Shown here piece by piece: positions 1,371 to 15,764 of a stretch of 64,000 nucleotides of DNA. The stretch is from Polyangiaceae bacterium LLY-WYZ-15_(1-7). GTDB lineage: Bacteria; Myxococcota_A; Polyangia; Polyangiales; Houyiibacteriaceae. Below the pieces are notes generated by a model that saw nothing but the letters and a program-made list of their open reading frames with translations, did no database searches and was not told the origin of the DNA. Location of the stretch: assembly GCA_031800675.1 (NCBI GenBank), contig DAPKRU010000056.1, positions 70,626 through 134,625 of the forward strand, written 5' to 3'. Made by a program: the position numbers and the translations under genes. The stretch's first letter is position 1. The number at the start of each line of letters is the position of its first letter.

Positions 1371-2743
1371 TCAGAACGCCCCCCGCCAGCCGACCTGCCC
1401 GCCGCCCGGTCCGAAGGAGAGCTCGAGGCGCCCCTCCCCCGGCGCGTCCCCGAGCCGGTCGTTGCGCAGATAGAGGATCAGCGTCGTGATCGCGAGCGCC
1501 CCCGTCGCGCCGAGCAAGAGATCCGCCGCGAGGTTGTGCCGCTCGACCGCGTCGAAGCGGTCCTGGCAGTCCGGCGCGTCCGGACACTGCTCCCGGAAGT
1601 CGTCGTTCAGCCGGAGCGCCCGCACCCCGACGCCCGCCCAGCTCGCCGCCGCCGCCGCCGTCAGCCCGAGCATCACGTGCGGCCAAGCCCCGAGGCGCCG
1701 CCCCTCGCGCCGCTCCCCGAGCTCCACGTCCAGCGTCGCCGTCTGGCCCGCCTCCACCGTCACGAGCCGCGTGTAGGGCGCCCAGCCCTCGCTCCGCACC
1801 TCCACCCGCCGCGCCCCCGGCGGCACCTCCACCCGCACCGTCGTCCCGCTCCCCACGGGCGCCGCGTCGACGATCACGTCCACGGGCCGCACGCTCCGCA
1901 CGAGCAGCGTCGCCGTCGTCAGCGAGGGCGCCTCGAGCCGCACCGTCCGCGCCTCGTCCCCGGGCTCGAGCACGAAGCGCTCCTCCCGCGCCCGCCCGTC
2001 CGCCGTCGCGAGGCGCGCCACGTACGTCCCAGGCGCGAGCTCCCGCCGCCCCGGCTCGATGGGCTCCCCGTCGAGCGTGAGCGTCGGCGCCTCCCCCAGC
2101 TCCCCGGCGAGCTCGAAGACGACCTCGACGGGCTCCGCCTCCAGCGTCGCCTCCGCCTCCACCCGCTCGCCGCGCACGGCCTCCAGCTCGAGGCGCCGGT
2201 CCGCGTGGTGCGGCGCCCGGAAGAAGACGACGTGCCGCCCGGGCGGGAGCGCGAGCTCGAGCGGCGTCCGCCCGCGCGGGGCGAGGTCGAGCCGATCCAC
2301 GAAGACCTGCGCCCCCTCGGGCGTGCTCGTCAGGGCCACCACGGCCACCCGCTCCCGGAGCGCGCCGATGCGCTGCTCGCCGTCCCGCCGCTCCTGCTCC
2401 GTCAGGCCGGGGATGGCGAGGTACTCCGTGTAGTAGGCGAAGGCCTCGTTCGGCCGCTCGAGCTGCTCGAGCACGATCGCCGCGTTGAAGAGCGCGTTCC
2501 GGCTGCGGACGATGCGCAGCGTCGCCACGTAGGCCTCGAGGGCCTGCTCGAGGAGCTGCCGCTGCCGCCGCCCCCGCGCGCGCCCGGCCTGCTCGAAGAG
2601 CCGGTTGCCACGCTCGAAGTAGACGCGCGCCTCGGCGTTCACGTCCGCCGTCTGGGCGTGAGCCGGCGCCGGCGCGGCGGGGAGCGGCGCGAGCGCGAAG
2701 GCGAGGCTGAGGAGGAGCGCCCGGAGGCGCGAAGAAAGGCGAA

Positions 2744-2747
<4 letters not shown>
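1371..2747 (-). CDS. PEGA-domain protein with signal peptide, TPR-like N-terminal part and C-terminal TM segment
   Basis: C-terminal part of track ORF 1371..3491. The GTG at 2747-2745 overlaps the stop of the upstream kinase (GTGA). VIRLSSRLRALLLSLAFALAPLPAAPAPAHA looks like a signal peptide. PEGA motif: STPEGAQVFVDRLDLAPRGRTPLEL. Confidence 0.7.
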
Positions 2748-4168
<1,421 letters not shown>

Positions 4169-4541
4169 CGGGTCCGGGCCCTCGTCCTCCTCGTCCTCGC
4201 GCACGATGCGCGGCGGCGCCGGCCCGTCCTCGCCGGTGCCGAGCGCGGTCGTGGCGAGCGCCACCGGCGAGCTCGCGCGCGGACGCGGACCCGACGCCGC
4301 GGCGGCGGCCTCCTTCGACGCGCCCGACTCGCCCGGGGCCGACACCTCGGGAGCCACCGCGCTCGGCGCCGCCTCCCCCGACGCCTCGTCAGGCCCGGGA
4401 GCGGTCGAATCCGCCTGTTTTCGCTCGGCTTCCAGCGGTGCCCTCCGATCCGAGAGCCTATCACGCGGGCGTCGGGGCCCCCACTCGGCGACATCCCACG
4501 CGCCCGTGGGCGCCCCCTCCCGTCGCCCCCATACTGCGGAG

Positions 4542-5174
4542 GTGCTCACCGACGCCGCCCGGCAGGCCCTCGAGGGCCCGCTCCGCCCCCGCAAGGGCGC
4601 GCGCGTGCGCCTCTTCCGGGCCGGCTGGGCCGAGGCCTTGACCCGCTCGCACCCGCTCGCGCTCTGCGTGCTCGCCGGCCCCGCCTTCGCCTGGGCCCTC
4701 GAAGCCGCGCGCCCGCTGCGCCTCGCCGACCTCGGCCCGGCCCTCGCTGGCGCCCTCCTCTGGGCCGCGCTCGAGTACGCCATGCACCGCTTCTTCTTCC
4801 ACCTCCCCGGCGACGGCGAGCGCGCCCGCGGCTTCCGCCTGCTCGTCCACGAGCACCACCACCTCACGCCCGACGACCCGCGCCGGCTCGCCGCCACCCC
4901 CTGGCAGGCCGCCCTCGCCATGCTCGCCCTCGCGGCGATCGTCCGCCCGCTCTTCGCGCGCTGGCCCGTCGCCTTCGCCGGCGGCCTCCTCGCCTACCTC
5001 GCCTACGAGGCGATCCACCACCGCATCCACCACGGGCCCCGCGGCGGTCGCCTCCTGCGCGCGCTCCGCGCCCACCACCTCCGCCACCACGCCCCCGGCG
5101 GCGAGGGCCACTCCTTCGGCATCAGCACGCCGCTCTTCGACTGGCTCCTGCGCAGCGGCCGCGGCCGCGGATAG
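4542..5174 (+). CDS. fatty acid hydroxylase / sterol desaturase superfamily membrane protein
   Basis: His boxes HRFFFH, HEHHH, HHRIHH and HHLRHH in the C-terminal part of track ORF 4206..5174. Divergent from the kinase. Start (GTG 4542) is uncertain. Confidence 0.6.
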   Translation: MLTDAARQALEGPLRPRKGARVRLFRAGWAEALTRSHPLALCVLAGPAFAWALEAARPLRLADLGPALAGALLWAALEYAMHRFFFHLPGDGERARGFRLLVHEHHHLTPDDPRRLAATPWQAALAMLALAAIVRPLFARWPVAFAGGLLAYLAYEAIHHRIHHGPRGGRLLRALRAHHLRHHAPGGEGHSFGISTPLFDWLLRSGRGRG

Positions 5175-5183
5175 GCTGCTCGC

Positions 5184-5552
5184 GTGAGCGAGGAGCGCAT
5201 CGAGGCGATTGTCGCGAGCAGCTGGGTCACCCACCGCGTCCTCATCGACCTCGGCGCCGGCACGCTCGAGATCGAGCGCCGCGTAGGCGGCCAGACCCGC
5301 CACGCGAAGGCCCCCCTCTCCGAGGCCGACCTCGACGTCCTCCGCCCCCTCGCCGCCGCCGTCCGGCAAGAGGAGCAAGAGCTCGTCCAGGGCGACTTCT
5401 ACGCCATGGGCGAAGAGCGCCTCCGCATCGAGCTCGCAGGCCGCACGGTCGAGCTCCACAACGCGAGCGACCGCCTCCGCACCCCGCACGCGAAGCCGCT
5501 CCTGGAGAAGTGCTGGGACCTGGCAGACGCCCTGCTGCCTCGGGCGGGATGA
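5184..5552 (+). CDS. hypothetical protein
   Basis: 122-aa ORF with balanced composition and high GC3, 10 nt after the hydroxylase stop. No motif recognised. Confidence 0.45.
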   Translation: MSEERIEAIVASSWVTHRVLIDLGAGTLEIERRVGGQTRHAKAPLSEADLDVLRPLAAAVRQEEQELVQGDFYAMGEERLRIELAGRTVELHNASDRLRTPHAKPLLEKCWDLADALLPRAG

Positions 5553-5675
5553 CCCCGCACGCCGCTCGCCTCCCCCAAACACGGGAAAGAAAACAGTCAG
5601 ACTCGATCAATACGCGTCGTCTCGGTACCATCCGAGCCTTCACCATCTGGCGACTAATCGGCATGGGGAGTTGGG

Positions 5676-8261
5676 GTGGCCAATACGAACCAGAAGACGC
5701 TCGAACCTTTCGTCAAAATGCTCGCGCTGACCGTCCGCGGGGGGCAGACACCAAGTGATGCCTACGACCACTTGGTAGAGATGGGAATTCCTCAGGCCGA
5801 CGCCAAGGCTGCCTTCCGGGTGTTCGAGGAGCGGGCGGGTCGTATTCGAAGAATGGACGACCCACCCGTCATCCACCGAGGGCTCCGCGCCTGGTACGCC
5901 GGTCCACAGCCCGGCGACAAGTGCTGGCCCGCTCTCGAGAAGTATCTTCGAGAGGACAAGGGCTGGCCTGCTGCGACGGTCGATTCGATTAACCGGTCCA
6001 CGACGAAGATCCTCTCGCATATGCAGCCTGCTGGCATGGGAGAGATCGACACCCGAGGACTGGTCGTCGGCCACGTCCAAAGCGGAAAGACGGCGAACTA
6101 CACAGCACTAATCGCCAAAGCGGCGGACGTTGGATACCGACTATTCATCGTCCTCGCAGGAGTCCACAACACTCTTCGACAACAGACTCAACGACGCCTA
6201 TCGGCGGAGCTACAGGATCTCAACCGAACTCTATGGGTATCGCTTACCGCAGAGAGCGAAGACTTTCGAGCCTCTACAACCGGAAATACAGACGCCTTCC
6301 TTTCCGACCACAGCCGGATGCGGATCCTCTGCGTCGCAAAGAAGAACGCTCACGTATTGAGACGACTGAGAAAGTGGTTGGACCAAGGCAGCGATCGGAT
6401 CCTCAGCGACTGCCCCACTCTCATCATAGACGACGAAGCGGACCAGGCTGGACTGAACGCTCACAAGAACCCGAACGAGCGGACAGCGATCAACAAGCTT
6501 CTTCTCGGCATCATCGGGACGCTACCCAAAGCCGCATACATCGGCTACACGGCGACACCGTTCGCGAATGTCCTCGTCAACCCAAAGGGCGACGACCTCT
6601 ACCCCAAAGACTTCATCGTCGAACTGCCCCGCCCTCCCGGCTACTTCGGCGCAGAGCGCCTCTTCGGTCGCGAGAAGCTACCGATGGATGAGTCAGACGT
6701 CGAGGACGTGCGGAACGCCGAACTGGACATGATCCGAGAAGTTCCCGATGAGGACATTTCTCTCGTTCGCCCCAAAGGCACCTCTGACCGAGCATCCTTC
6801 GAGGCCTCAGTTCCACCCAGTTTGGACGAAGCCATTCGCTACTTCCTTCTGACCTGTGCGGCGAGGCGTGCTCGTGCACCTCGCTCGCACGAGTCCATGC
6901 TTATCCACACAACATTGTACGTAGACTCGCACGACAAACTGCAGCGCGAGGTCGAGGATGCTTGGCTTGTTCTCCGCAGCCGTGTCGCCTCACGGAACAA
7001 GAAGGTCATCAGCGAACTAGAAGACCTATGGGAGAGGGAATGCCGCCGCGTTCCAGCTGAGGTATTCAGTCGGAAGAAAACATCATTCGAAGAGCTACAC
7101 CCGTTTCTCCGAAGCGTTCTCGATGAAGCATCCGTCATCGCAGAGCACGGATCTAGCCTCGATCGCCTTGTATACGACGACACTCCAAGAACACAGATAG
7201 CCATCGGAGGCAACACACTTTCTCGCGGCCTCACTCTCGAGGGTCTCACGGTTAGCTACTTCGTTCGCTCCGCTTCCGCGTACGACACATTACTTCAGAT
7301 GGGCCGATGGTTTGGGTATCGATTTGGGTACGAGGATCTGCCTCGCATCTGGATGTCCAACGAGCTCAAGGAGGCGTTCTTCCAACTCGCGACTGTCGAG
7401 GCGGAGATCCGTGAGGACATACGGAAGTATGAAACACAGGACATGACCCCAGAGCAGTTCGGAGTGCGAATCCGTGTTCACCCGAGCCTCGCTGTCACCA
7501 ACTCCCTGAAGATGCACCACGCCGAGGAATGCGACATCTCCTACAGTGGAACGACAAGACAAACACATATATACGAGAGGGTGGACCGCGACCTTTTGAG
7601 CAACAACATTGACGCCGCAGATTCCCTCATCGAATCCCTCGGCCCTCACAACGAGCGCTTGGGAGGACGATATGTATGGACGGGTGTCCCCGCCGAAAAG
7701 GTCATCGACTTCGTCCGCCGCTATCGTTTCCACCCTCGGCTGGTCGACCTTACCAGCGACGCACTGACTTCCTACATCGAATCGGAGATCGAGTACGGTG
7801 GCCTGAGTTCTTGGACGGTCGTACTGTCTGGCCGTCGTCACGAAGACCAGGTGGCAGGCGTTCGAGAGATCGGCGGGCTCGAGGTCAACCTCCTGAACCG
7901 TTCTCGTCGGAAACCCACGCGATCCGAGGACACACATGCAACCGTAGGCACGGTTTCCACACAGATGGACTTCCGAGCAGGCCTGCCTGATGGACGCAAG
8001 AAACGCGGACCTGAAGACCCCCCTCTTCTCGTCCTATATCCCATTTCAAAGAACTCGAAGCCTAGTGAAAAGCAGGCGACTAAAGCAGCGGACCCGCGTA
8101 TTCCGCTCGATGCGACCGAGGACGTCCTGGCGGTAGCGTTCGAGTTTCCCAAGTCGGAACGACCCATCGGGAAGAAGTACGTACGCGTATTGCTCCCCGA
8201 GCCCACTGGTGAGTTCGACGAAGAAGACGAGTTCGAGGATGACGAAGCCGACGAAGGCTGA
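5676..8261 (+). CDS. Z1-domain protein with N-terminal SF2 helicase-like NTPase
   Basis: GTG start with GGGGAG 6 nt upstream. Walker A GHVQSGKT, DEAD-type Walker B IIDDEADQAG, motif III GYTATPF. C-terminal LSRGLTLEGL...LQMGRWFGYR matches the Z1 domain signature as I remember it. Confidence 0.85.
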   Translation: MANTNQKTLEPFVKMLALTVRGGQTPSDAYDHLVEMGIPQADAKAAFRVFEERAGRIRRMDDPPVIHRGLRAWYAGPQPGDKCWPALEKYLREDKGWPAATVDSINRSTTKILSHMQPAGMGEIDTRGLVVGHVQSGKTANYTALIAKAADVGYRLFIVLAGVHNTLRQQTQRRLSAELQDLNRTLWVSLTAESEDFRASTTGNTDAFLSDHSRMRILCVAKKNAHVLRRLRKWLDQGSDRILSDCPTLIIDDEADQAGLNAHKNPNERTAINKLLLGIIGTLPKAAYIGYTATPFANVLVNPKGDDLYPKDFIVELPRPPGYFGAERLFGREKLPMDESDVEDVRNAELDMIREVPDEDISLVRPKGTSDRASFEASVPPSLDEAIRYFLLTCAARRARAPRSHESMLIHTTLYVDSHDKLQREVEDAWLVLRSRVASRNKKVISELEDLWERECRRVPAEVFSRKKTSFEELHPFLRSVLDEASVIAEHGSSLDRLVYDDTPRTQIAIGGNTLSRGLTLEGLTVSYFVRSASAYDTLLQMGRWFGYRFGYEDLPRIWMSNELKEAFFQLATVEAEIREDIRKYETQDMTPEQFGVRIRVHPSLAVTNSLKMHHAEECDISYSGTTRQTHIYERVDRDLLSNNIDAADSLIESLGPHNERLGGRYVWTGVPAEKVIDFVRRYRFHPRLVDLTSDALTSYIESEIEYGGLSSWTVVLSGRRHEDQVAGVREIGGLEVNLLNRSRRKPTRSEDTHATVGTVSTQMDFRAGLPDGRKKRGPEDPPLLVLYPISKNSKPSEKQATKAADPRIPLDATEDVLAVAFEFPKSERPIGKKYVRVLLPEPTGEFDEEDEFEDDEADEG

Positions 8262-9240
8262 GGTTCGCAAGTCGCTGCAGCGCTCTTTCGATGTACTCGA
8301 GAAGCCCATCGAGGACCAAGGTCTCGAGGTCCGGGAGCTCTTCATTGGGGACGTCGATGGGCCTTGGTTCGCTGGCTGTGGAATCGACGGCACATGGCAT
8401 GTGCTCGTCCCAGCGAAGGCGCACGAGGAGATCCAGCCGGACAAGGGAAGCAAGGGAATACAAGTCGAAGCGCGAGAGCTGATGGACGGCGGGAAGCGGC
8501 GGCATTTCGTGGATCTGGTATGCCGCATTCCGCGGCTCCGACGGCTGTTCCTCCTCGTCGCTGAAGACCTGCTAACGCGACTCGACGGTAAGAGCGACGT
8601 GTCGACTCGCGCTTCCGAGACACTGGCGGACTGGCGCGAACTCCTGGCACGGGCGTCCCGTCCGGTCAGTGAGCAACGGCTACTTGGTGTGTACGCCGAG
8701 CTCCTACAGCTGCGCGAGCTCATCCGTATCAACCCGATGTCGGCCAGGTGCTGGCGAGGACCAGACGGAGAGGTGCATGACTTGGAGTCGGGCGGAATCG
8801 CGATCGAAGTGAAGGCGCGAAGCCAACGCGGTCAACGAGTCCGAATCAACGGTCTCCGACAGCTCGTCGCAGCCCCCGGCGGACGCCTCGCTCTGGCGGT
8901 CGTCACTCTGGACCGCGCGAGTAACGGAGAGAACATTGGGGAGCTACTGGGATCGCTCGCTTCGATGGGTGCGGATCAGGAGCTTCTCCTCGACAAGCTG
9001 GCAAAGCAGGGGGTTGACCCAAGCGAGTCCGCGGCTCGGCAGGCCCGCTTCTGCCTACGCGATGAGAGCGTCTTTGAAGTCAGAGAAGACTTCCCTCGGC
9101 TGACTCCAGCCGAGCTTGCCGCGCCTCTCCACTCGGCCATCTCCCAGCTCAGCTACTCGATCGATCTCGGCGCGGCGGCGCACTGCGAACTGTCAGCTGC
9201 CGAAGTCGAGAAGCTGAGAGAGGAGCTGGTGGCAACGTGA
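8239..9240 (+). CDS. PD-(D/E)XK motif nuclease-like protein
   Basis: Track ORF 8209..9240. The ATG at 8239 would give a 23-nt overlap with the Z1 gene. Candidate catalytic core VHDLESGGIAIEVKARS (D ... E-x-K). Confidence 0.7.
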   Translation: MTKPTKAEVRKSLQRSFDVLEKPIEDQGLEVRELFIGDVDGPWFAGCGIDGTWHVLVPAKAHEEIQPDKGSKGIQVEARELMDGGKRRHFVDLVCRIPRLRRLFLLVAEDLLTRLDGKSDVSTRASETLADWRELLARASRPVSEQRLLGVYAELLQLRELIRINPMSARCWRGPDGEVHDLESGGIAIEVKARSQRGQRVRINGLRQLVAAPGGRLALAVVTLDRASNGENIGELLGSLASMGADQELLLDKLAKQGVDPSESAARQARFCLRDESVFEVREDFPRLTPAELAAPLHSAISQLSYSIDLGAAAHCELSAAEVEKLREELVAT

Positions 9241-11132
9241 AGCCCCTCGACATGCAGGCTGAGCCCTACGTCGCCACCGGCAACATCGCATCGGAGGGTA
9301 TGCGAAACCAGTTGGGTCGACCGCGGCTCGACCGGCTTTCACTACTCGTGCGAGAAGCAGCGCAGAACTCTTGGGATGCCAAGAGTGAGTGCGCCACATC
9401 GGTCACGTTCGGGCTTCAAGGGTGGACGCTGAACGCGAAGCAGTTCGGTGCGCTCCAGAAGACAGTCTTCGCGCAACGGCCACCTCGCCATGCCTACGAC
9501 GTGACGGAGGCAGCGGCCCTGGGAGACACGCTACGGGAGCGTGCCGCCAAGGTTCGTGACGGCGAGGGCATCGTCATGCTGGCGGTCTACGACCGCGGCA
9601 CATCCGGCCTCGGAGGGCCCACCCGCGCTGATAGCCTTCGTACGGACCAGCCTCGAGACTTCGTCGACTTCTTCCGGAACATTGGAACGCCCCCTGACAA
9701 GGCGCGCGGAGGCGGCACCTTCGGGTACGGCAAGGCGGCCCTCTACTTGAGCAGCGAGGTCCATACCCTTCTCGTGCATACGCGATGCCGGACCGATGAC
9801 GGCCTGCAGTCGCGGTTCATGGGCTCGGGACTCACCAATCACTACTCCCACGAGGGCCGAAACCTCACGGGGCGCCATTGGTGGGGTCGGCGGGATCCCA
9901 AGTCCGGGATCGTCGATCCACTCGTTGGCGAGCAGGCTGACCAGCTGGCCGACCTACTCGGGTTTCCATCGTTCGAGCGCAACTCGACCGGGACTACGAT
10001 CGGAATCCTGGCACCCCACTTCGATCCCTGGGAGGAGGAGCCCGAGCGCGCGTTCGAGTACATGTCGTGGCAACTGCTCTTGAATCTGTGGCCCAAGATG
10101 GTGCCGTGGCCTGGGGAGAAGCAGGCCAGCATGCGATTCGAGCTGAGCTGGGAAGGCAAAACCGTCGCGATGCCAGGGCCCGCGGACACACCTCCCTTCG
10201 ACGGCTTTGTTCGCGCACTGCAGCAAGTACGCGAGGCAGAGAAGACGGGGGACGCATCCAAAGAGCTGTTCTGTCTCCGCCCGAAGAGGAGGGTGGGCCG
10301 GTTCGCGGCGGTTCGGACACCAACTCAGCGAACCGGTCTCTCCGACTTCGCAGAAGCAGGAACGGTCCCTGACATTCACACCCGAGCACACCACGTCGCG
10401 CTGCTTCGTCGTCCCGAGCTGGTCGTCGAGTACAAGGAGTTCCCTGCGTTGCCCTCCGACACGATCGGATACGCGGGAGTCTTTCTCGCAGACCCGGACA
10501 TGGATCGCGTGTTCGCCGGGGCAGAGCCTCCGACGCACGATAGCTGGTCGCCCGAAATCATCGCCGACCGACGTCACAAGACGTTCGTGAGGACCACGTT
10601 CAAACGGATCGACGAGAAGGTCGCGGAGTTCATCGAGCCGCACCGTGAGCAACCGGACGCGGTCGCCGGCGGCCCGCTCGCCGAACTGGCGGAGCATCTG
10701 GGGGAGGTGCTCATCGGGGCCGGCAGCTCACCAGAGCAGGAAGCCTCCTCGGCTGGAGGAGGCAAGGGGGGCGGACGACGACGCGGCCCGAAGCCCAAGG
10801 TGCGAGTCCACGACACCCGACGATTCTCACAAGGCGAGGGCCTGCCCACGCGACTGTTCGAGGTGGAGCTGCGCCACGCCAAAGGAAGCCGCGCATCCCG
10901 GCTCACGGCGAAGCTGTCGATCTCGCTCCTCGGGGGAGGAGTGGAATCCACACCGCCGAGAGGGGCTCGAAAGCCACGGGTAGCTTTCTGGGGCTCCCCG
11001 TCAGGCGAGCGATTCGACGATACCGACTCGGTAGACGCAGTCGAGGAAGGAACCTGGGAGCTCGGCGTGGCCATGCCGCGCTCAGCACTGGTGGCCGTCG
11101 ATGTCGTCGCGGAAGGAGAGTCGACGCCGTGA
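9237..11132 (+). CDS. GHKL / Bergerat-fold (MutL/MORC-like) ATPase
   Basis: GTG start overlaps the upstream stop (GTGA). N-box EAAQNSWDA (E-x3-N-x2-D-A), G1-like DRGTSGLGG, G2 GTFGYGKAALY. Confidence 0.75.
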   Translation: MKPLDMQAEPYVATGNIASEGMRNQLGRPRLDRLSLLVREAAQNSWDAKSECATSVTFGLQGWTLNAKQFGALQKTVFAQRPPRHAYDVTEAAALGDTLRERAAKVRDGEGIVMLAVYDRGTSGLGGPTRADSLRTDQPRDFVDFFRNIGTPPDKARGGGTFGYGKAALYLSSEVHTLLVHTRCRTDDGLQSRFMGSGLTNHYSHEGRNLTGRHWWGRRDPKSGIVDPLVGEQADQLADLLGFPSFERNSTGTTIGILAPHFDPWEEEPERAFEYMSWQLLLNLWPKMVPWPGEKQASMRFELSWEGKTVAMPGPADTPPFDGFVRALQQVREAEKTGDASKELFCLRPKRRVGRFAAVRTPTQRTGLSDFAEAGTVPDIHTRAHHVALLRRPELVVEYKEFPALPSDTIGYAGVFLADPDMDRVFAGAEPPTHDSWSPEIIADRRHKTFVRTTFKRIDEKVAEFIEPHREQPDAVAGGPLAELAEHLGEVLIGAGSSPEQEASSAGGGKGGGRRRGPKPKVRVHDTRRFSQGEGLPTRLFEVELRHAKGSRASRLTAKLSISLLGGGVESTPPRGARKPRVAFWGSPSGERFDDTDSVDAVEEGTWELGVAMPRSALVAVDVVAEGESTP

Positions 11133-12043
11133 AAGTCGTCGCTCCCCCCTATCCGACCCTCGAACTCGCCGACCTAGACCCGTGGCGACTGCTGGGCACC
11201 GAGGACCCAGATGCCCTGAAGGACGTGGCTACGCAATGGGATCCGTCCGTGAGCCTTGGACTCTGCCGCAGTCTTCGACTGGACCACGACCGTGTGATCG
11301 AAGAGACCGCTCTCGGGGCCGGCTCACGGATACGAGTCATCGCGTGCTGGCGTTGCGACGCCACTCGGACTCGGACTCGGACGTGCAAACGCGACGTGGT
11401 TCTTCGGATGGGAGAGCAGGAGGCCCTGGAGCTTCGGATCGAGATCGACGGCTCACACGTGGCCTCGTGGGTCGATCTCGAAACGGCCATCGTTCTCATG
11501 GAAGCCAAGGACGCTCGTTCAGAGGCGGCCGAAGCGAAGGGGGCGACGCTCTGGCGAGACGCCGTCCGCGTCGACCTCGAAGACTCGTCGGCGCGGTTCC
11601 CCGTTCAATGGGTCGACTTCGGCGCGACGCGAGGCTTTCCCCAAAAGGCCGCCTGGTACCTCGACTGGGATCCGCATCAGCCAGATAGCTCCGTTCTCGG
11701 AGGAATGCGGCTCTACCTCAATTCGGGCCACACCGAGCTGAAGAAGGCGACCGAAGGCGCCGAGAAGCACGTCCGGCGCATGTGGCAGCGGATCCGGCTG
11801 GACGTTGCCCGACAGATGATGGTCGGTGCTCTCCAGTCGAGAGAGTTCATGGAGGACCCCGGCGCCTTCGGGGGAGACACGGTCGGCGCGATCGTGCGCC
11901 GACTCCTCGGCAGCGTCTTCTCCCATCGGTCTCCGAGCGCAGTTCGCGACCTACTCGCTACCAACCCTGGTCGGTTCGAAGCCCAGCTGCAGGCCAGTCT
12001 CGGCTACGTGGAAGCGGGTACCGAAGCCGGGGGCGCCGAATGA
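11129..12043 (+). CDS. hypothetical protein (operon member, no motif recognised)
   Basis: GTG start overlaps the upstream stop (GTGA 11129-11132). 304 aa with ordinary composition, same strand and same compositional class as its neighbours. Confidence 0.65.
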   Translation: MKVVAPPYPTLELADLDPWRLLGTEDPDALKDVATQWDPSVSLGLCRSLRLDHDRVIEETALGAGSRIRVIACWRCDATRTRTRTCKRDVVLRMGEQEALELRIEIDGSHVASWVDLETAIVLMEAKDARSEAAEAKGATLWRDAVRVDLEDSSARFPVQWVDFGATRGFPQKAAWYLDWDPHQPDSSVLGGMRLYLNSGHTELKKATEGAEKHVRRMWQRIRLDVARQMMVGALQSREFMEDPGAFGGDTVGAIVRRLLGSVFSHRSPSAVRDLLATNPGRFEAQLQASLGYVEAGTEAGGAE

Positions 12044-12837
12044 TTCGGTTCTTTCCTCGCCTCCCGCGGGTCGTTGCTCGCGAGCTTGCCGCGGAGCTCT
12101 GCGAGGCAACCAACTTCGCGGCGCAAGAGCGTGCGGCCACGAGTCACCCGCTGGCCTCCTACGGGCCTACTGGAGGAAACCCCGTTCGGCCGGAGGAGCT
12201 CGAGGAGCTGGCCGACTCCATCCGGCGAATCGCCGACCGGATGGCCTTTCCGGAACCCATCCGGACCCGACAGGCCAGCAGTTTTGACGGACAGTGCGCC
12301 GTGTTCCTGCACCGAGAGGCGGGAATCCCGCCCACGGAAGCGTCCCGGGAGGATGTCTGGGCGTTCTTCGGCTGTGTGCTCTTGCCCGACGTCGTGCGAT
12401 GGCGCTGGGGAGGTGGCCAAAAGAGCCCAGTGGATCGCTTCCTCGGAGGCGACCGCGGCCTACGCAACACCTTCGGCCGACTCTGGTGGCGCGGCGAGTT
12501 GCTTCGAGACGACTGGTGGGCCGATCGGGAGCCGTACGAACTCGTGCACGTACTCAAGGACGACGAGATCGTCGGGTTCGTCGAACGAGCCAGAGCCGTG
12601 ATGTCCCGACAGACCGCCGTCGCGGTCGCGCGCGAGACCATGCGGGCGGCCGCTCGAGACCAAGTGGATAGCCGCATGGAGCTGTTCCGAGACGTGATGA
12701 AGCGATTCCTGCGGCGTGGCGCACTGATCAACTACGAGGCACTCGACCCAGAGGAGATGAGGATGGTTGCGCGGGAGCTCGTCGCCGAGTCGGTGAAGGC
12801 GCTCGAAGGGGCCTCCCGTCGGCGTGCTGCCGTCTGA
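12040..12837 (+). CDS. hypothetical protein (operon member, no motif recognised)
   Basis: In-frame ATG at 12040 inside track ORF 11782..12837, overlapping the upstream stop as ATGA. MIRFFPRLPRVVARELAAEL... gives 265 aa, Trp/Arg-rich in the middle. Confidence 0.65.
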   Translation: MIRFFPRLPRVVARELAAELCEATNFAAQERAATSHPLASYGPTGGNPVRPEELEELADSIRRIADRMAFPEPIRTRQASSFDGQCAVFLHREAGIPPTEASREDVWAFFGCVLLPDVVRWRWGGGQKSPVDRFLGGDRGLRNTFGRLWWRGELLRDDWWADREPYELVHVLKDDEIVGFVERARAVMSRQTAVAVARETMRAAARDQVDSRMELFRDVMKRFLRRGALINYEALDPEEMRMVARELVAESVKALEGASRRRAAV

Positions 12838-12857
12838 GCACATGGTAGGGTGGCCCG

Positions 12858-14087
12858 ATGGACCGGGGTGTTGCGGCGGAAGCGGAGCAGCTGACCCTCG
12901 AGGTGTCTCGGGTGGAGCGAGGACACGCCGCGGCGGAGCAGACTCCGCGGCAACTGCCCACCATGGGCCTCTTCTCCGGTGTCGGAGGGATCGAGCTGGG
13001 ACTGTCGCGCGCTGGACACCCTTCCCTCGGGCTCTGCGAGGTCGACGGGACGGCCCGAGCCGTGTTGGCCCACCGCTTCCCAGACCTGCCTCTTCATGGA
13101 GACGTGGCAGAGCTGCGCGCCCTACCCGCCGACACGGAGCTCCTCGCGGGAGGATTCCCCTGCCAGGATCTCTCCCAGGCCGGACGGACAGCCGGGCTGG
13201 CCGGCGCCAAGTCCGGCCTCATCTCCGAGGTGTTTCGGCTCGTGGAGGACCAGCGCGTTCCTTGGCTGCTTCTAGAGAACGTGCCCTTCATGCTCCAGCT
13301 GTCCAAGGGCCGTGCTTTGGACGTCATCGTGACGAAGCTGGAGTCGCTCGGATACAAGTGGGCATACCGGGTCGTCGATTCGCGGGCGTTCGGCCTGCCG
13401 CAGCGCCGTCGACGCGTGCTGATTGTCGCGAGCCTGGAAGAGGAGCCACGAACGGTTCTCTTTCCGGATGACGCAGGTCCAGCCACCCCCAACGAGACGG
13501 CAGACACCGCCTATGGCTTCTATTGGACCGAGGGAACACGGGGCCTCGGCTGGGCGGTCGATGCCGTCCCCACGCTGAAGGGTGGTTCCTCGGTAGGCGT
13601 TCCCTCGCCGCCAGCCATTTGGATGCCAGACGGCCGTATCGTCACTCCCCACATCTGCGACGCCGAACGACTCCAGGGTTTCAAGGCGAACTGGACCATC
13701 GCCGCGGAGCGCGTCGCTGCCCCGCGCCACCGGTGGAAGCTCGTGGGCAACGCGGTCAGCGTGCGGGTCGCCAAGTGGGTCGGGAAGTGCCTGTCCAAGC
13801 CGAGGGACTTCGAGACACACGAAGTACGCCGCGTGGTGGAGGGCAAGTCCTGGCCGACGAACGCTTGGAGCGAAGGCGGCGAACGGTGGACGGCCGAGAT
13901 GTCGGAGTGGCCGAAGCGCTTCCGGAGACCTTCGCTCACGGAGTTCCTTCGGCACGAGCCCAAGCCTCTCTCGGAGCGCGCCACTCGCGGATTCCTGCGG
14001 CGAGCCGAGAACAGCTCCCTCCGCTTCGTGGAGGGCTTCCTCCCGGCAGTGAGGCGACACCTCGACTCGGTATCAACCGCGACGTGA
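12858..14087 (+). CDS. dcm: DNA (cytosine-5)-methyltransferase
   Basis: m5C-MTase motifs: I LFSGVGGIELG, IV GGFPCQDLSQAG, VI LLLENVPFM, VIII QRRRRVLIVA, X GNAVSVRVAKW. An alternative start at ATG 12963 lies just before motif I. Confidence 0.92.
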   Translation: MDRGVAAEAEQLTLEVSRVERGHAAAEQTPRQLPTMGLFSGVGGIELGLSRAGHPSLGLCEVDGTARAVLAHRFPDLPLHGDVAELRALPADTELLAGGFPCQDLSQAGRTAGLAGAKSGLISEVFRLVEDQRVPWLLLENVPFMLQLSKGRALDVIVTKLESLGYKWAYRVVDSRAFGLPQRRRRVLIVASLEEEPRTVLFPDDAGPATPNETADTAYGFYWTEGTRGLGWAVDAVPTLKGGSSVGVPSPPAIWMPDGRIVTPHICDAERLQGFKANWTIAAERVAAPRHRWKLVGNAVSVRVAKWVGKCLSKPRDFETHEVRRVVEGKSWPTNAWSEGGERWTAEMSEWPKRFRRPSLTEFLRHEPKPLSERATRGFLRRAENSSLRFVEGFLPAVRRHLDSVSTAT

Positions 14088-14530
14088 GCGACCAGCTCGT
14101 CCAGAAACGCAGGGACGGTCACGTCATCCGGGTCGACTCGAAGACTTCGGATCGGATGCGGGGCATCCGGCAGAAGGACACGAAACCGGAGATCGTCGTC
14201 CGAAAGCTCCTCCACGAGCTCGGACACAGGTACCGGGTTCGCAACCGTGACCTTCCGGGTAGCCCGGACGTGGCGAACCGGAGCCGCCGCTGGGCCGTGT
14301 TCGTCCACGGCTGCTACTGGCACCGGCACGGCTGCAAAGCGACGACGACCCCGAAACGCAATAGAGCCTTCTGGGAGGCCAAGTTCGCTCGCAACGTCGA
14401 GAGGGACGCGGAGTCGGCCGCCGCTCTGCGGAAGCTGGGGTTCACGGTGGTCGTCGTGTGGGAGTGTGAGACGAAGGGCGACCTGGCAGCACTGCGCGAA
14501 CGGCTGCACTCCGAACTCAATCAGGCGTGA
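14084..14530 (+). CDS. vsr: very short patch repair endonuclease
   Basis: The GTG at 14084 overlaps the dcm stop (GTGA). DTKPEIVVRKLLHELGHRYRVRNRDLPGSPDVANRSRRWAVFVHGCYWHRHGC is the classic Vsr core. Confidence 0.9.
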   Translation: MSDQLVQKRRDGHVIRVDSKTSDRMRGIRQKDTKPEIVVRKLLHELGHRYRVRNRDLPGSPDVANRSRRWAVFVHGCYWHRHGCKATTTPKRNRAFWEAKFARNVERDAESAAALRKLGFTVVVVWECETKGDLAALRERLHSELNQA

Positions 14531-14975
14531 CAGGACGGTCTACGTGGGGCCCGAGAGCGCGTCCGAGATAGGCGCGCAGCGGAACCCCCTGACGACCGAC
14601 GACGTACTCCACCGTCCACCGGTGCTCCTGTCCCACGCAGGCCACCACGGCCTGAAGCCCCGTCGCATAGCGAACGAGAGCCTCGAGGCGCTCCACATAA
14701 AGCTCGCCGGAGGATTGCCGCTTGGCCCAGGATTCCGGGCTGAGAAGCACCACCAGTTCCGGCAGCGCGGACAGCGTCTGACCCACGCGAGCTGCGTACT
14801 GCTTGCGTAGACTGCTGAGGAACGTGGCCTTCGCGCGAACGCCGGCCACCTCGGAGAGCCAGCTCTCGAGCGGGCGAAACTTGCCACGCGACCGGCTGCT
14901 CGCATCTGCGACCTCGTCGAGCAAGGCCTGAAAGCGGACGGCGAAAGCCGTCTCGGAGAGGCTGGGGGTGCTCAC
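14517..14975 (-). CDS. hypothetical protein
   Basis: 152-aa ORF convergent with vsr, with a 14-nt 3' overlap. Intermediate GC. No motif recognised. Confidence 0.45.
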   Translation of the reverse strand: MSTPSLSETAFAVRFQALLDEVADASSRSRGKFRPLESWLSEVAGVRAKATFLSSLRKQYAARVGQTLSALPELVVLLSPESWAKRQSSGELYVERLEALVRYATGLQAVVACVGQEHRWTVEYVVGRQGVPLRAYLGRALGPHVDRPVTPD

Positions 14976-15000
14976 GGCGGCAAGTATGGACTGTTGGCTC

Positions 15001-15108
15001 GGAGGTCGCCCGCCTGCGTCTTCGGCCTCTGGGTGAGGCGACCTCCAGTCCCGATCACTCGGGTCGACGACGTGCGGGACGACCGAGCCCCGTCCCGCTC
15101 TGACGGGG
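15001..15108. promoter_or_regulatory. two inverted repeats in a divergent intergenic region
   Basis: GGAGGTCGCC (15001-15010) pairs with GGCGACCTCC (15037-15046), a perfect 10-bp inverted repeat. CCCCGTC (15088-15094) pairs with GACGGGG (15102-15108). Both lie between the divergent ORFs 14517..14975 (-) and 15132..15572 (+). Confidence 0.3.
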
Positions 15109-15131
15109 AGGATCGCCTAGACTCCCCCCCC

Positions 15132-15572
15132 ATGCCACCCACGCACTACGGCGAACGGCGACTGGCCGAGGTCGCCAGCTGGCCCGCTGCGCCCCAAGAG
15201 TTGCTGGAGCGCGTGACAGCCCTCATCGCGGACTTGCACGCGCTGGAGGTCCAGGCCTACGAGTGCCCGACGGCCGAGCGCATGGAGCTGGCCCGCCGAC
15301 GCTACGCCGAGCTCTTGGAGAAACACGAAGCCGCGCCGCGCGACCCCCAGCCCATGCACATCAGCAACCCGCCGTCGCACGATCCGTCACGCCAAGCGAT
15401 CGAGGCGTCCGGCGTCGATGGCGACGAAGCGGTGGTCGTCACACGCCAGCGTCACGCCGTCATCCCCGGCTCTTCGACGCTGCACCAATACGTCTTCGAA
15501 CGGCGCCGCGGTCGTTGGACGCTCGTGGCCCTCGACTTCATGGACCACGAATCGGCCTGGCCCTGCCTCTGA
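15132..15572 (+). CDS. hypothetical protein
   Basis: ATG at 15132 inside track ORF 14994..15572 gives 146 aa. No motif recognised. Confidence 0.4.
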   Translation: MPPTHYGERRLAEVASWPAAPQELLERVTALIADLHALEVQAYECPTAERMELARRRYAELLEKHEAAPRDPQPMHISNPPSHDPSRQAIEASGVDGDEAVVVTRQRHAVIPGSSTLHQYVFERRRGRWTLVALDFMDHESAWPCL

Positions 15573-15764
15573 CTCCCCCAGCCCAGCGCTCACGCGCCCG
15601 CTCGGCGGGGCGCCACCCTCGCGCTCCGCGCAGGCCAGCCCGCCGCGGCTCCCCCACGGCCTCCCCGGACGCGCGCCGGAGCCGGGCCGGGACGAGGTCG
15701 GTCCCTACTTGACACCCCCCCCTGCTGCGCCACATGGACGCGGGCGGGAGACCTGTAGGGGAGC

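Follow-up and report, generated by a model that had tools for sequence, protein, structure and literature searches.

Bacterial operons that combine a Z1 helicase, a nuclease, an ATPase of the MORC class and a DNA cytosine methylase have been described by comparative genomics. One such locus occupies positions 5676–14530 of the DNA analyzed here, a stretch of 64,000 nucleotides (the window) from contig DAPKRU010000056.1 of the genome assembly GCA_031800675.1 of Polyangiaceae bacterium LLY-WYZ-15_(1-7). Its seven genes encode a Z1 NTPase, a DUF4420 nuclease, a GHKL ATPase, two partner proteins, a C5-cytosine methylase and Vsr. Iyer, Abhiman and Aravind (2008, PMC2292703) described operons joining a Z1 helicase, a novel protein with a restriction-endonuclease (RE) fold, MORC or paraMORC2–5, DCM and Vsr, and read them as restriction-modification (R-M) systems. 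Miller, Stern and Burstein (2022, PMC9523054, Supplementary Table 11) later listed a predicted “Type I” defense system comprising a Z1 protein of 925 amino acids (aa), a protein of 704 aa whose match to MORC is non-significant, DUF4420, DUF6339 and a 310-aa protein without domains. It also contains a cytosine methylase, shows a strong association with DNA repair endonucleases, and is kept separate from an AIPR-containing, Mza-like “Type II”.

The Mza system (Gao et al. 2020) is the validated relative of these predictions. The mzaABCDE genes of E. coli protect against T4, and for MzaD both DNA cleavage by the purified protein and a requirement in full defense are reported (bioRxiv 10.1101/2022.06.16.496414). 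According to Miller et al. (PMC9523054), MzaA is a sigma factor, while MzaB–E are matched to MORC, Z1, DUF4420 and AIPR proteins, respectively. GHKL proteins also act in other defenses; the ATPase of a paraMORC3-type protein is required in Shedu (PMC12137116).

The window locus is read here, with moderate confidence, as a methylation-gated, dual-ATPase system that resembles R-M and would act against phages or plasmids, with its methylase docked via DUF6339. The evidence consists of the domains and catalytic motifs of the encoded proteins, the fixed order of a five-gene core across related loci, and the linkage of this core to a methylase.

Genes and proteins of the locus

The seven open reading frames (ORFs) are intact and lie on one strand:

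5676..8261, + strand: ORF1, 861 aa, SF2 helicase-like NTPase with a Z1 domain (Pfam Z1, 6.8e-69)
8239..9240, + strand: ORF2, 333 aa, DUF4420 nuclease of the PD-(D/E)XK type (Pfam DUF4420, 6.8e-43)
9237..11132, + strand: ORF3, 631 aa, GHKL (Bergerat) ATPase with an S5/transducer domain and a predicted C-terminal Ig-like beta-sandwich (motifs, AlphaFold/Foldseek)
11129..12043, + strand: ORF4, 304 aa, no Pfam model for its family, probably a structural or adaptor protein (model, gene context)
12040..12837, + strand: ORF5, 265 aa, DUF6339, rich in Arg and Trp (Pfam DUF6339, 2e-14)
12858..14087, + strand: ORF6, 409 aa, C5-cytosine DNA methyltransferase of the Dcm type (Pfam DNA_methylase, 4.6e-46)
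14084..14530, + strand: ORF7, 148 aa, Vsr very-short-patch T:G mismatch endonuclease (Pfam Vsr, 1.3e-24)

ORF2 starts at ATG 8239, inside the end of ORF1, which gives an overlap of 23 nt (8239–8261). Start/stop overlaps of 4 nt each follow at 9237–9240 (GTGA), 11129–11132 (GTGA), 12040–12043 (ATGA) and 14084–14087 (GTGA), and the spacer ahead of dcm is 20 nt long. Public contigs that carry an identical locus have independent gene calls with products of 861, 333, 631, 304, 265, 409 and 148 aa, reproducing the start of the 333-aa ORF2. One of these contigs is part of the metagenome-assembled genome (MAG) GCA_031800595.1, and the identical locus was recovered from many metagenome samples. The first-pass annotation, made from the letters of the window alone, had reported seven coupled genes on the same strand; its coordinates and all its junctions were read back from the sequence and agree with the public gene calls. 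The motifs it quoted (GHVQSGKT, IIDDEADQ, GYTATPF, LSRGLTLEGL, QMGRWFGYR, EAAQNSWDA and GTFGYG) are all found in the translations.

ORF1 contains a RecA-like core (about residues 123–300), the Z1 domain (382–603) and a conserved C-terminal region (604–861). Four elements are 100 % conserved in 79 aligned homologs: the Walker A motif G132–GKT139, DDEAD at 252–256, TAxP at 292–295 and QMGRWFGxR at 541–549. The motif DThhQXuRhFG, by which the Z1 helicase of superfamily II was defined (Iyer et al. 2008, PMC2292703), is matched by DTLLQMGRWFG in ORF1. The best-scoring defense model is that of MzaC, with an E-value of 2.5e-94 in PADLOC and 405.4 bits in NCBIfam (NF041933), where the cut-off is 1500 bits.

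ORF2 belongs to DUF4420, a PD-(D/E)XK family (PMC3424549), and the residues E154, D181, E190-x-K192 and Q208 are invariant among 80 homologs. The motif had been given as D-x9-EVK; the aspartate and EVK are present, but the actual spacing is D181-x8-E190-V-K192. The match of ORF2 to MzaD is weak (PADLOC 1.4e-9; NCBIfam NF041934, 60.2 bits with a cut-off of 420). Pfam bears out the earlier Z1 and PD-(D/E)XK calls. The statement that the locus lacks a classical restriction endonuclease also stands, as ORF1–5 match no restriction endonuclease family beyond the generic DUF4420 in Pfam, PADLOC and NCBIfam.

ORF3 had been called a GHKL ATPase from its motifs, and motifs and model agree with this, although sequence-profile searches of Pfam, NCBIfam and PDB returned no match. 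In an alignment of 42 relatives the Bergerat motifs are invariant (N-box E40/N44/D47, G1 D119xGxxG and G2 G159GGTxGxGK). R391 and E430xxxH434 are invariant in the family as well. The AlphaFold (AF2) model has a predicted local distance difference test (pLDDT) score of 83.4, and the 29 Foldseek matches below 1e-3 are all GHKL+transducer ATPases, among them TopoVI-B (2.5e-10), TRAP1/Hsp90, SMCHD1 and the Topo II ATPase. The model ends with an Ig-like beta-sandwich of ~110 residues (about 520–631). By its motifs and predicted structure, ORF3 is firmly assigned as a GHKL+transducer ATPase.

In the C-terminal portion of the transducer/S5 domain, the segment E430-P-P-T-H434 is shared by 100 % of the 81 sequences aligned. 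An ExxxH motif at this place is the stated hallmark of paraMORC2 (Iyer et al. 2008, PMC2292703). This match and the agreeing operon context suggest that ORF3 is probably a paraMORC2, a family whose published members are known here by description. ParaMORC2 is described as a GHKL domain with intact ATP-binding motifs followed by a C-terminal S5 domain, both of which ORF3 possesses. The published members come mainly from cyanobacteria and Gram-positive bacteria; the ORF3 family is common in Actinomycetota and occurs in other phyla as well. A paraMORC-related pair, HEF_HK/Response_reg_2 (bioRxiv 10.1101/2020.08.26.268516), was considered and represents another family, ORF3 having no HATPase_c_3 or HEF_HK match.

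The two remaining core proteins had been listed as unknowns. For ORF4 this holds, with no match in Pfam, NCBIfam, PADLOC or PDB, while ORF5 turned out to be DUF6339. An exhaustive search yielded 1678 cluster representatives of the ORF4 family at 50 % identity, where word-indexed searches returned merely 8–13 proteins; the members among the matches listed are ~300 aa long. Few residues are invariant (W19, G138, P158, W176 and N198). The AF2 model of ORF4 (pLDDT 86), built on an alignment of 15 sequences, consists of an N-terminal beta-sandwich (about 43–198) and a C-terminal helical bundle (202–290). Its structural neighbors in PDB and BFVD are generic Ig-like or ApaG-like sandwiches only. ORF4 is probably a structural or adaptor subunit. 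Profile-profile comparison gave no sign that the beta-sandwiches of ORF4 and ORF3 are paralogous (probability 0.5 %, E 0.12).

In DUF6339 the residues W107, W121, R122, R147, W149 and R183 are invariant, and no acidic catalytic constellation is found among the conserved residues. ORF5 matches the PADLOC model PDC-M33C at 1.8e-6; the DUF6339 profile gave only chance-level matches in PDB. In the myxobacterial loci most closely related to the window (L001:12806–14506, L004:12840–15182, L005:8982–11261 and L006:12464–15289), the DUF6339 proteins are about 570–800 aa long and carry a C-terminal extension of about 300–530 aa that is absent from ORF5 and matches nothing in Pfam, NCBIfam or PDB. In one Actinomycetota MAG (L009:11823–13655, a stop-to-stop ORF), DUF6339 is fused to a sigma-54 C-terminal DNA-binding domain (DBD; Pfam Sigma54_DBD, 1.6e-42). 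Since Miller et al. call MzaA a sigma factor, this fusion suggests that DUF6339 and MzaA may have related roles.

ORF6 scores 148.1 bits with TIGR00675 (dcm; cut-off 100.65) and 1.9e-148 with the PADLOC model MTase_II, contains the motifs FSGVGG, GFPCQ, ENV, QRRRR and GNAV, and has M.HhaI and M.HaeIII as its nearest solved structures. ORF7 scores 124.6 bits with TIGR00632 (vsr; cut-off 97.85). The Dcm and Vsr calls of the first-pass annotation thus both lie above curated cut-offs.

The operon resides on an island of lower GC content, as had been noted earlier and as the GC and GC3 (third codon position) profiles agree. GC is 0.56–0.67 over about 5.5–15 kb compared with 0.71–0.78 in the flanks, and GC3 is 0.66–0.84 in the seven genes compared with 0.92–0.99 in the flanking genes. 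The island is bordered by ordinary chromosomal neighbors: on the upstream side a fatty-acid hydroxylase and a Ser/Thr kinase, on the downstream side an mrp antiporter operon. Signs of mobility were looked for, but neither a tRNA or an integrase nor meaningful flanking repeats turned up. The island is compositionally clear and horizontally acquired. Besides the operon it holds a tail of intermediate GC (14517–15572) with two small ORFs that are also called on the public contigs and match nothing in Pfam or PADLOC:

5553..15600, no strand: lower-GC island holding the operon (GC profile)
14517–14975, − strand: small hypothetical ORF of 152 aa in the island tail, running convergently into the end of vsr with an overlap of 14 nt
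15132–15572, + strand: small hypothetical ORF of 146 aa in the island tail

Conservation of the core and its methylase

Relatives of ORF3 are present in at least 582 species-representative genomes with a patchy distribution over Myxococcota, Chloroflexota, Actinomycetota, Pseudomonadota (Beta- and Gammaproteobacteria), Planctomycetota and Nitrospinota. The best 80 of these loci, together with three metagenomic ones (83 in all; the metagenomic L002 and L003 represent the same locus), were searched with the seven window proteins. The closest relatives of the window among them are from Myxococcota. The core genes were matched as follows:

Z1: 81 of 83 loci
DUF4420: 81 of 83 loci
GHKL: 83 of 83 loci
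ORF4: 80 of 83 loci, after the GHKL gene
DUF6339: 80 of 83 loci

The order Z1-DUF4420-GHKL-ORF4-DUF6339 is constant and recurs in 80 of the 83 loci, the other three being cut off by a contig end, and the core lies on a single strand throughout. Where individual core genes are missing, the gap mostly falls at a contig end; however, DUF4420 is absent from the contig interior in L021 and L025, and Z1 went undetected in L039.

A neighborhood analysis of the linkage to Dcm and Vsr had been proposed in the first-pass annotation, and the survey answers it with a near-obligate, very strong association of core and methylase. An iterated methylase profile finds a C5-methylase domain within 10 kb of the core in 79 of the 83 loci. 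The median gap is 15 bp, and the distance is at most 2 kb in 74 of these 79. Two of the four methylase-free loci end at a contig edge; the other two are from Amycolatopsis (L047 and L057), where the core, at about 6.2–13.5 kb, has lon on one side and a lacI/alpha-amylase/ABC-transporter region on the other. DUF6339 and the C5-methylase form a single polypeptide in 21 loci, all from actinomycetes: complete methylases are fused in L044 (12681–14585), L059, L046 and 18 further loci. Directly downstream of the fusion, L046 and L075 contain a second, separate Dcm with Vsr. Vsr itself is found in about 59 loci and is absent from about 29 % with the core intact.

The position and orientation of the methylase differ among loci. 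Its sequence identity follows that of the core with a Spearman coefficient of 0.34–0.53, compared with 0.70 for GHKL and Z1. In the window, the methylase and the GHKL protein have mostly common nearest relatives (L001, L006 and L004). A swap is seen between L004 and L005, which share 75 % identity in the GHKL protein and 27 % in the methylase. Such replacement of the methylase under a conserved core fits a core that does not itself read the DNA sequence.

Several loci deviate from the common plan. L021 and L025 have Z1 followed by GHKL, ORF4 and DUF6339 homologs. L084, on the Agrobacterium salinitolerans plasmid pAtCFBP5507a (8668–14852), encodes Z1, hypothetical proteins of 524 and 298 aa, and DUF6339; this variant is on a conjugative plasmid amid defense-like genes (AbiEii, an AAA ATPase with UvrD, and an EcoRII-N protein). 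On a Priestia aryabhattai plasmid (L085, 8785–16272), the partners of the Z1 and PD-(D/E)XK genes are Dcm and a type II restriction endonuclease of the AlwI family, which replace the GHKL/ORF4/DUF6339 set, and the Z1/DUF4420 pair therefore combines with differing partner sets. Upstream of the core in L002 and divergent from it (1844–6053) are Dcm, an HhH-GPD glycosylase at the position of Vsr, and a 681-aa protein with HATPase_c_3 and HATPase_c domains. The N-terminus of this protein matches the NCBIfam “BbrUII/HgiDII family restriction enzyme” and its C-terminus histidine-kinase models, making it a second, different GHKL protein beside the core. In the proteobacterial loci L031, L037, L038, L040, L073 and L021, the methylase ORF is upstream of Z1 and about 730–770 aa long, with about 330–350 N-terminal residues that match nothing in Pfam; these are stop-to-stop ORFs and may be partly non-coding.

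Proposed mechanism and rival readings

The proposed system would consist of three modules. The first is the Z1 SF2 NTPase with the DUF4420 nuclease, a pair that also occurs in the validated Mza system. The second would be formed by the paraMORC2-type GHKL+S5 ATPase, the ~300-aa beta-sandwich/helical adaptor ORF4 and DUF6339, and the third by the C5-cytosine methylase and Vsr. The methylase would mark and protect host DNA. DUF6339 would dock it onto the effector complex, where it could double as the DNA-sequence reader for restriction, in the logic of Type I/III R-M; this role is suggested by the methylase swaps under a nearly unchanged core and by the repeated fusion to DUF6339. At unmethylated sites the GHKL dimer would close on DNA as an ATP-gated clamp, like MutL, MORC and Topo VI-B, which is the general role proposed for MORCs and paraMORCs by Iyer et al. 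(2008, PMC2292703). The Z1 motor could then translocate or remodel DNA and DUF4420 cut it, with ORF4 as a scaffold. Vsr would mend the T:G mismatches that arise from deamination of 5-methylcytosine and so lower the mutational cost of the system.

This scheme is supported by the 100 % conservation of the catalytic residues of both ATPases and of the nuclease in about 80 homologs, and earlier comparative genomics arrived at the same general reading (PMC2292703; PMC9523054). From these data we infer that the proteins form a complex gated by methylation, that the events follow this order, and that the locus serves defense.

Several observations weigh against it. In the Amycolatopsis loci L047 and L057, both complete, neither a methylase nor Vsr lies within 10 kb of the five-gene core, and according to Miller et al. 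there is no methylase among the five Mza genes (PMC9523054); together they indicate that the Z1/DUF4420 pair need not depend on a linked methylase. DUF4420 is missing from three loci (L021, L025 and L084), so that cleavage by this nuclease is not universal. The sequence reveals no means of sensing methylation status, neither structure nor sequence comparison gave informative relatives for ORF4 and DUF6339, and literature searches found no experiment on any member of the core family.

A stronger form of the proposal, which can be put forward only tentatively, is that the locus represents a distinct, unnamed R-M class. Here the C5-methylase, docked by DUF6339 and fused to it in many actinomycetes, would be the sole sequence reader, and the GHKL clamp and the Z1 motor would license the PD-(D/E)XK nuclease on unmethylated DNA.

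The rival that survives best, although unlikely, is a methylation-independent defense in the manner of Mza. The core would then sense infection or foreign DNA by other means, and Dcm-Vsr would travel with it not as a self-marker but, for example, as an orphan or epigenetic methylase or as a shield against other restriction systems. Protection against T4 by the E. coli Mza genes (bioRxiv 10.1101/2022.06.16.496414), which by the account of Miller et al. include no methylase (PMC9523054), the two Amycolatopsis loci with the core alone, and the variable placement and occasional swapping of the methylase all fit such a system. The methylase linkage of 79 of the 83 loci with its median gap of 15 bp, the 21 DUF6339-methylase fusions and the co-variation of methylase and core identity do not, and ordinary co-location in defense islands would not yield near-obligate adjacency over six phyla.

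That the locus is a divergent true member of the mzaABCDE family is very improbable. MzaC and MzaD are the best PADLOC and NCBIfam matches of ORF1 and ORF2, both systems have a GHKL-class ATPase, and the sigma-54 DBD fusion in L009 recalls the sigma factor MzaA of Miller et al. Yet the scores of ORF1 and ORF2 are far below the model cut-offs (405 against 1500 and 60 against 420 bits), which speaks for homology and not equivalence. ORF3–5 match none of MzaA, MzaB and MzaE at E<=0.1 in PADLOC and NCBIfam (the presence of an MzaB model being inferred from accession numbering), MzaB is matched by 0 of 42 members of the ORF3 family, and by Pfam none of the seven ORFs carries an AIPR or sigma domain. 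The Mza gene set includes neither ORF4 nor DUF6339, and Miller et al. split their “Type I” from the Mza-like “Type II”.

A dedicated DNA repair function, in which a MutL-like GHKL ATPase, a helicase and a nuclease would assist Vsr at Dcm-induced T:G mismatches with no part in defense, deserves equally little weight. In E. coli, MutL is a partner of Vsr in very-short-patch repair and also interacts with the helicase UvrD (Iyer et al. 2008, PMC2292703), and Vsr accompanies the core in about 59 of the loci. However, about 29 % of the loci keep an intact core without Vsr, and L002 has the HhH-GPD glycosylase in its place. The acquired low-GC island and the patchy spread across phyla resemble mobile defense genes, the Z1 and DUF4420 relatives in Mza act against phage, and housekeeping repair would not need a methylase of its own.

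A reading of the locus as an acquired element in decay or already inactive, to which the still atypical GC and the lack of a promoter-like site in a simple scan might point, is scarcely credible given seven intact frames with coupled starts and stops, catalytic motifs that are all intact and an identical locus in many metagenome samples; the scan for sigma-70 promoters and terminators gave chance-level results and is uninformative at a genome GC of ~75 %.

Relation to known systems

In gene content the locus corresponds to the “Type I” system of Miller et al. Compared by gene descriptions, not sequences, the gene sets are the same: Pfam finds the core trio of Z1, DUF4420 and cytosine methyltransferase, and the extra genes are represented by ORF3 (631 aa), DUF6339 (ORF5), ORF4 (304 aa) and the adjoining Vsr. 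“Type I” was drawn purely from gene-context embeddings, with no experiment, its HHpred result for the GHKL fold was non-significant, and the DUF6339-methylase fusions were unreported. NCBI names for the core family are generic: “Z1 domain-containing protein”, “PD-(D/E)XK motif protein”, “hypothetical protein” and “DUF6339 family protein”.

The operon class of Iyer et al. (2008) has in common with the window a RE-fold protein with the E-D-ExK signature, a GHKL+S5 ATPase that replaces MORC, and cytosine methylase and Vsr neighbors. The accessible part of that paper neither presents the ORF4 family and DUF6339 as constant partners nor mentions the invariant order of the five genes.

The PADLOC candidate PDC-M33 overlaps with the locus in two proteins. 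Its PDC-M33A model is matched by ORF3 (1e-17, N-terminus only) and by all 41 tested relatives (best 9e-18), and PDC-M33C by ORF5 and 21 of 31 family members, which indicates that the pairing of GHKL and DUF6339 occurs in another candidate system. The matches are weak and partial, covering the N-terminal 230 residues of ORF3, and ORF4 has no PDC-M33B match. Literature searches found no paper on PDC-M33.

“Mza-like”, the label given in the first-pass annotation, is only half true. A Z1 NTPase similar to MzaC, a DUF4420 nuclease similar to MzaD and a GHKL-class ATPase are found in both, but in place of MzaA and AIPR/MzaE the window has ORF4, DUF6339 and a near-obligate C5-methylase. The locus is not to be filed as Mza.

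In its proposed logic, the system would resemble Type I and Type III R-M, with an ATP-dependent complex, DNA recognition by the methylase or its partner, and an SF2 motor combined with a PD-(D/E)XK nuclease. Unlike these, the window has no HsdR/M/S or Mod/Res homologs, its methylase is C5-cytosine and not N6-adenine specific, and a GHKL clamp-type ATPase and two subunits without counterpart are added. Classical Type II R-M, where a standalone sequence-specific endonuclease stands beside the methylase, has a different composition from that of the window.

The family is widespread, with the above-mentioned species-level genomes for ORF3 and about 1,700 cluster representatives for ORF4, and two of its five core proteins, ORF4 and DUF6339, are without known fold relatives. 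In this family a MORC/MutL-like GHKL ATPase is coupled to cytosine methylation, a combination that also serves eukaryotic MORCs in gene silencing, and this laboratory-tractable bacterial version could reveal how MORC-type clamps respond to a methyl mark. If the methylase is indeed the sole reader, the locus would be a dual-ATPase machine without counterpart among Types I–IV, BREX and DISARM, and a prokaryotic model for MORC-type ATPases reading DNA methylation. To the earlier predictions the present analysis adds the GHKL fold by structure prediction, the probable placement of ORF3 in paraMORC2, an initial account of how ORF4 folds, figures for core order and methylase linkage, and a clear separation from Mza. 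The DUF6339-methylase fusions and the one DUF6339-sigma-54 DBD fusion are leads on how the modification and restriction arms communicate. The overall interest is moderate: the system is mechanistically open and has a link to MORC biology, and it would not surprise a specialist, its architecture being of an already predicted kind and not a new one.

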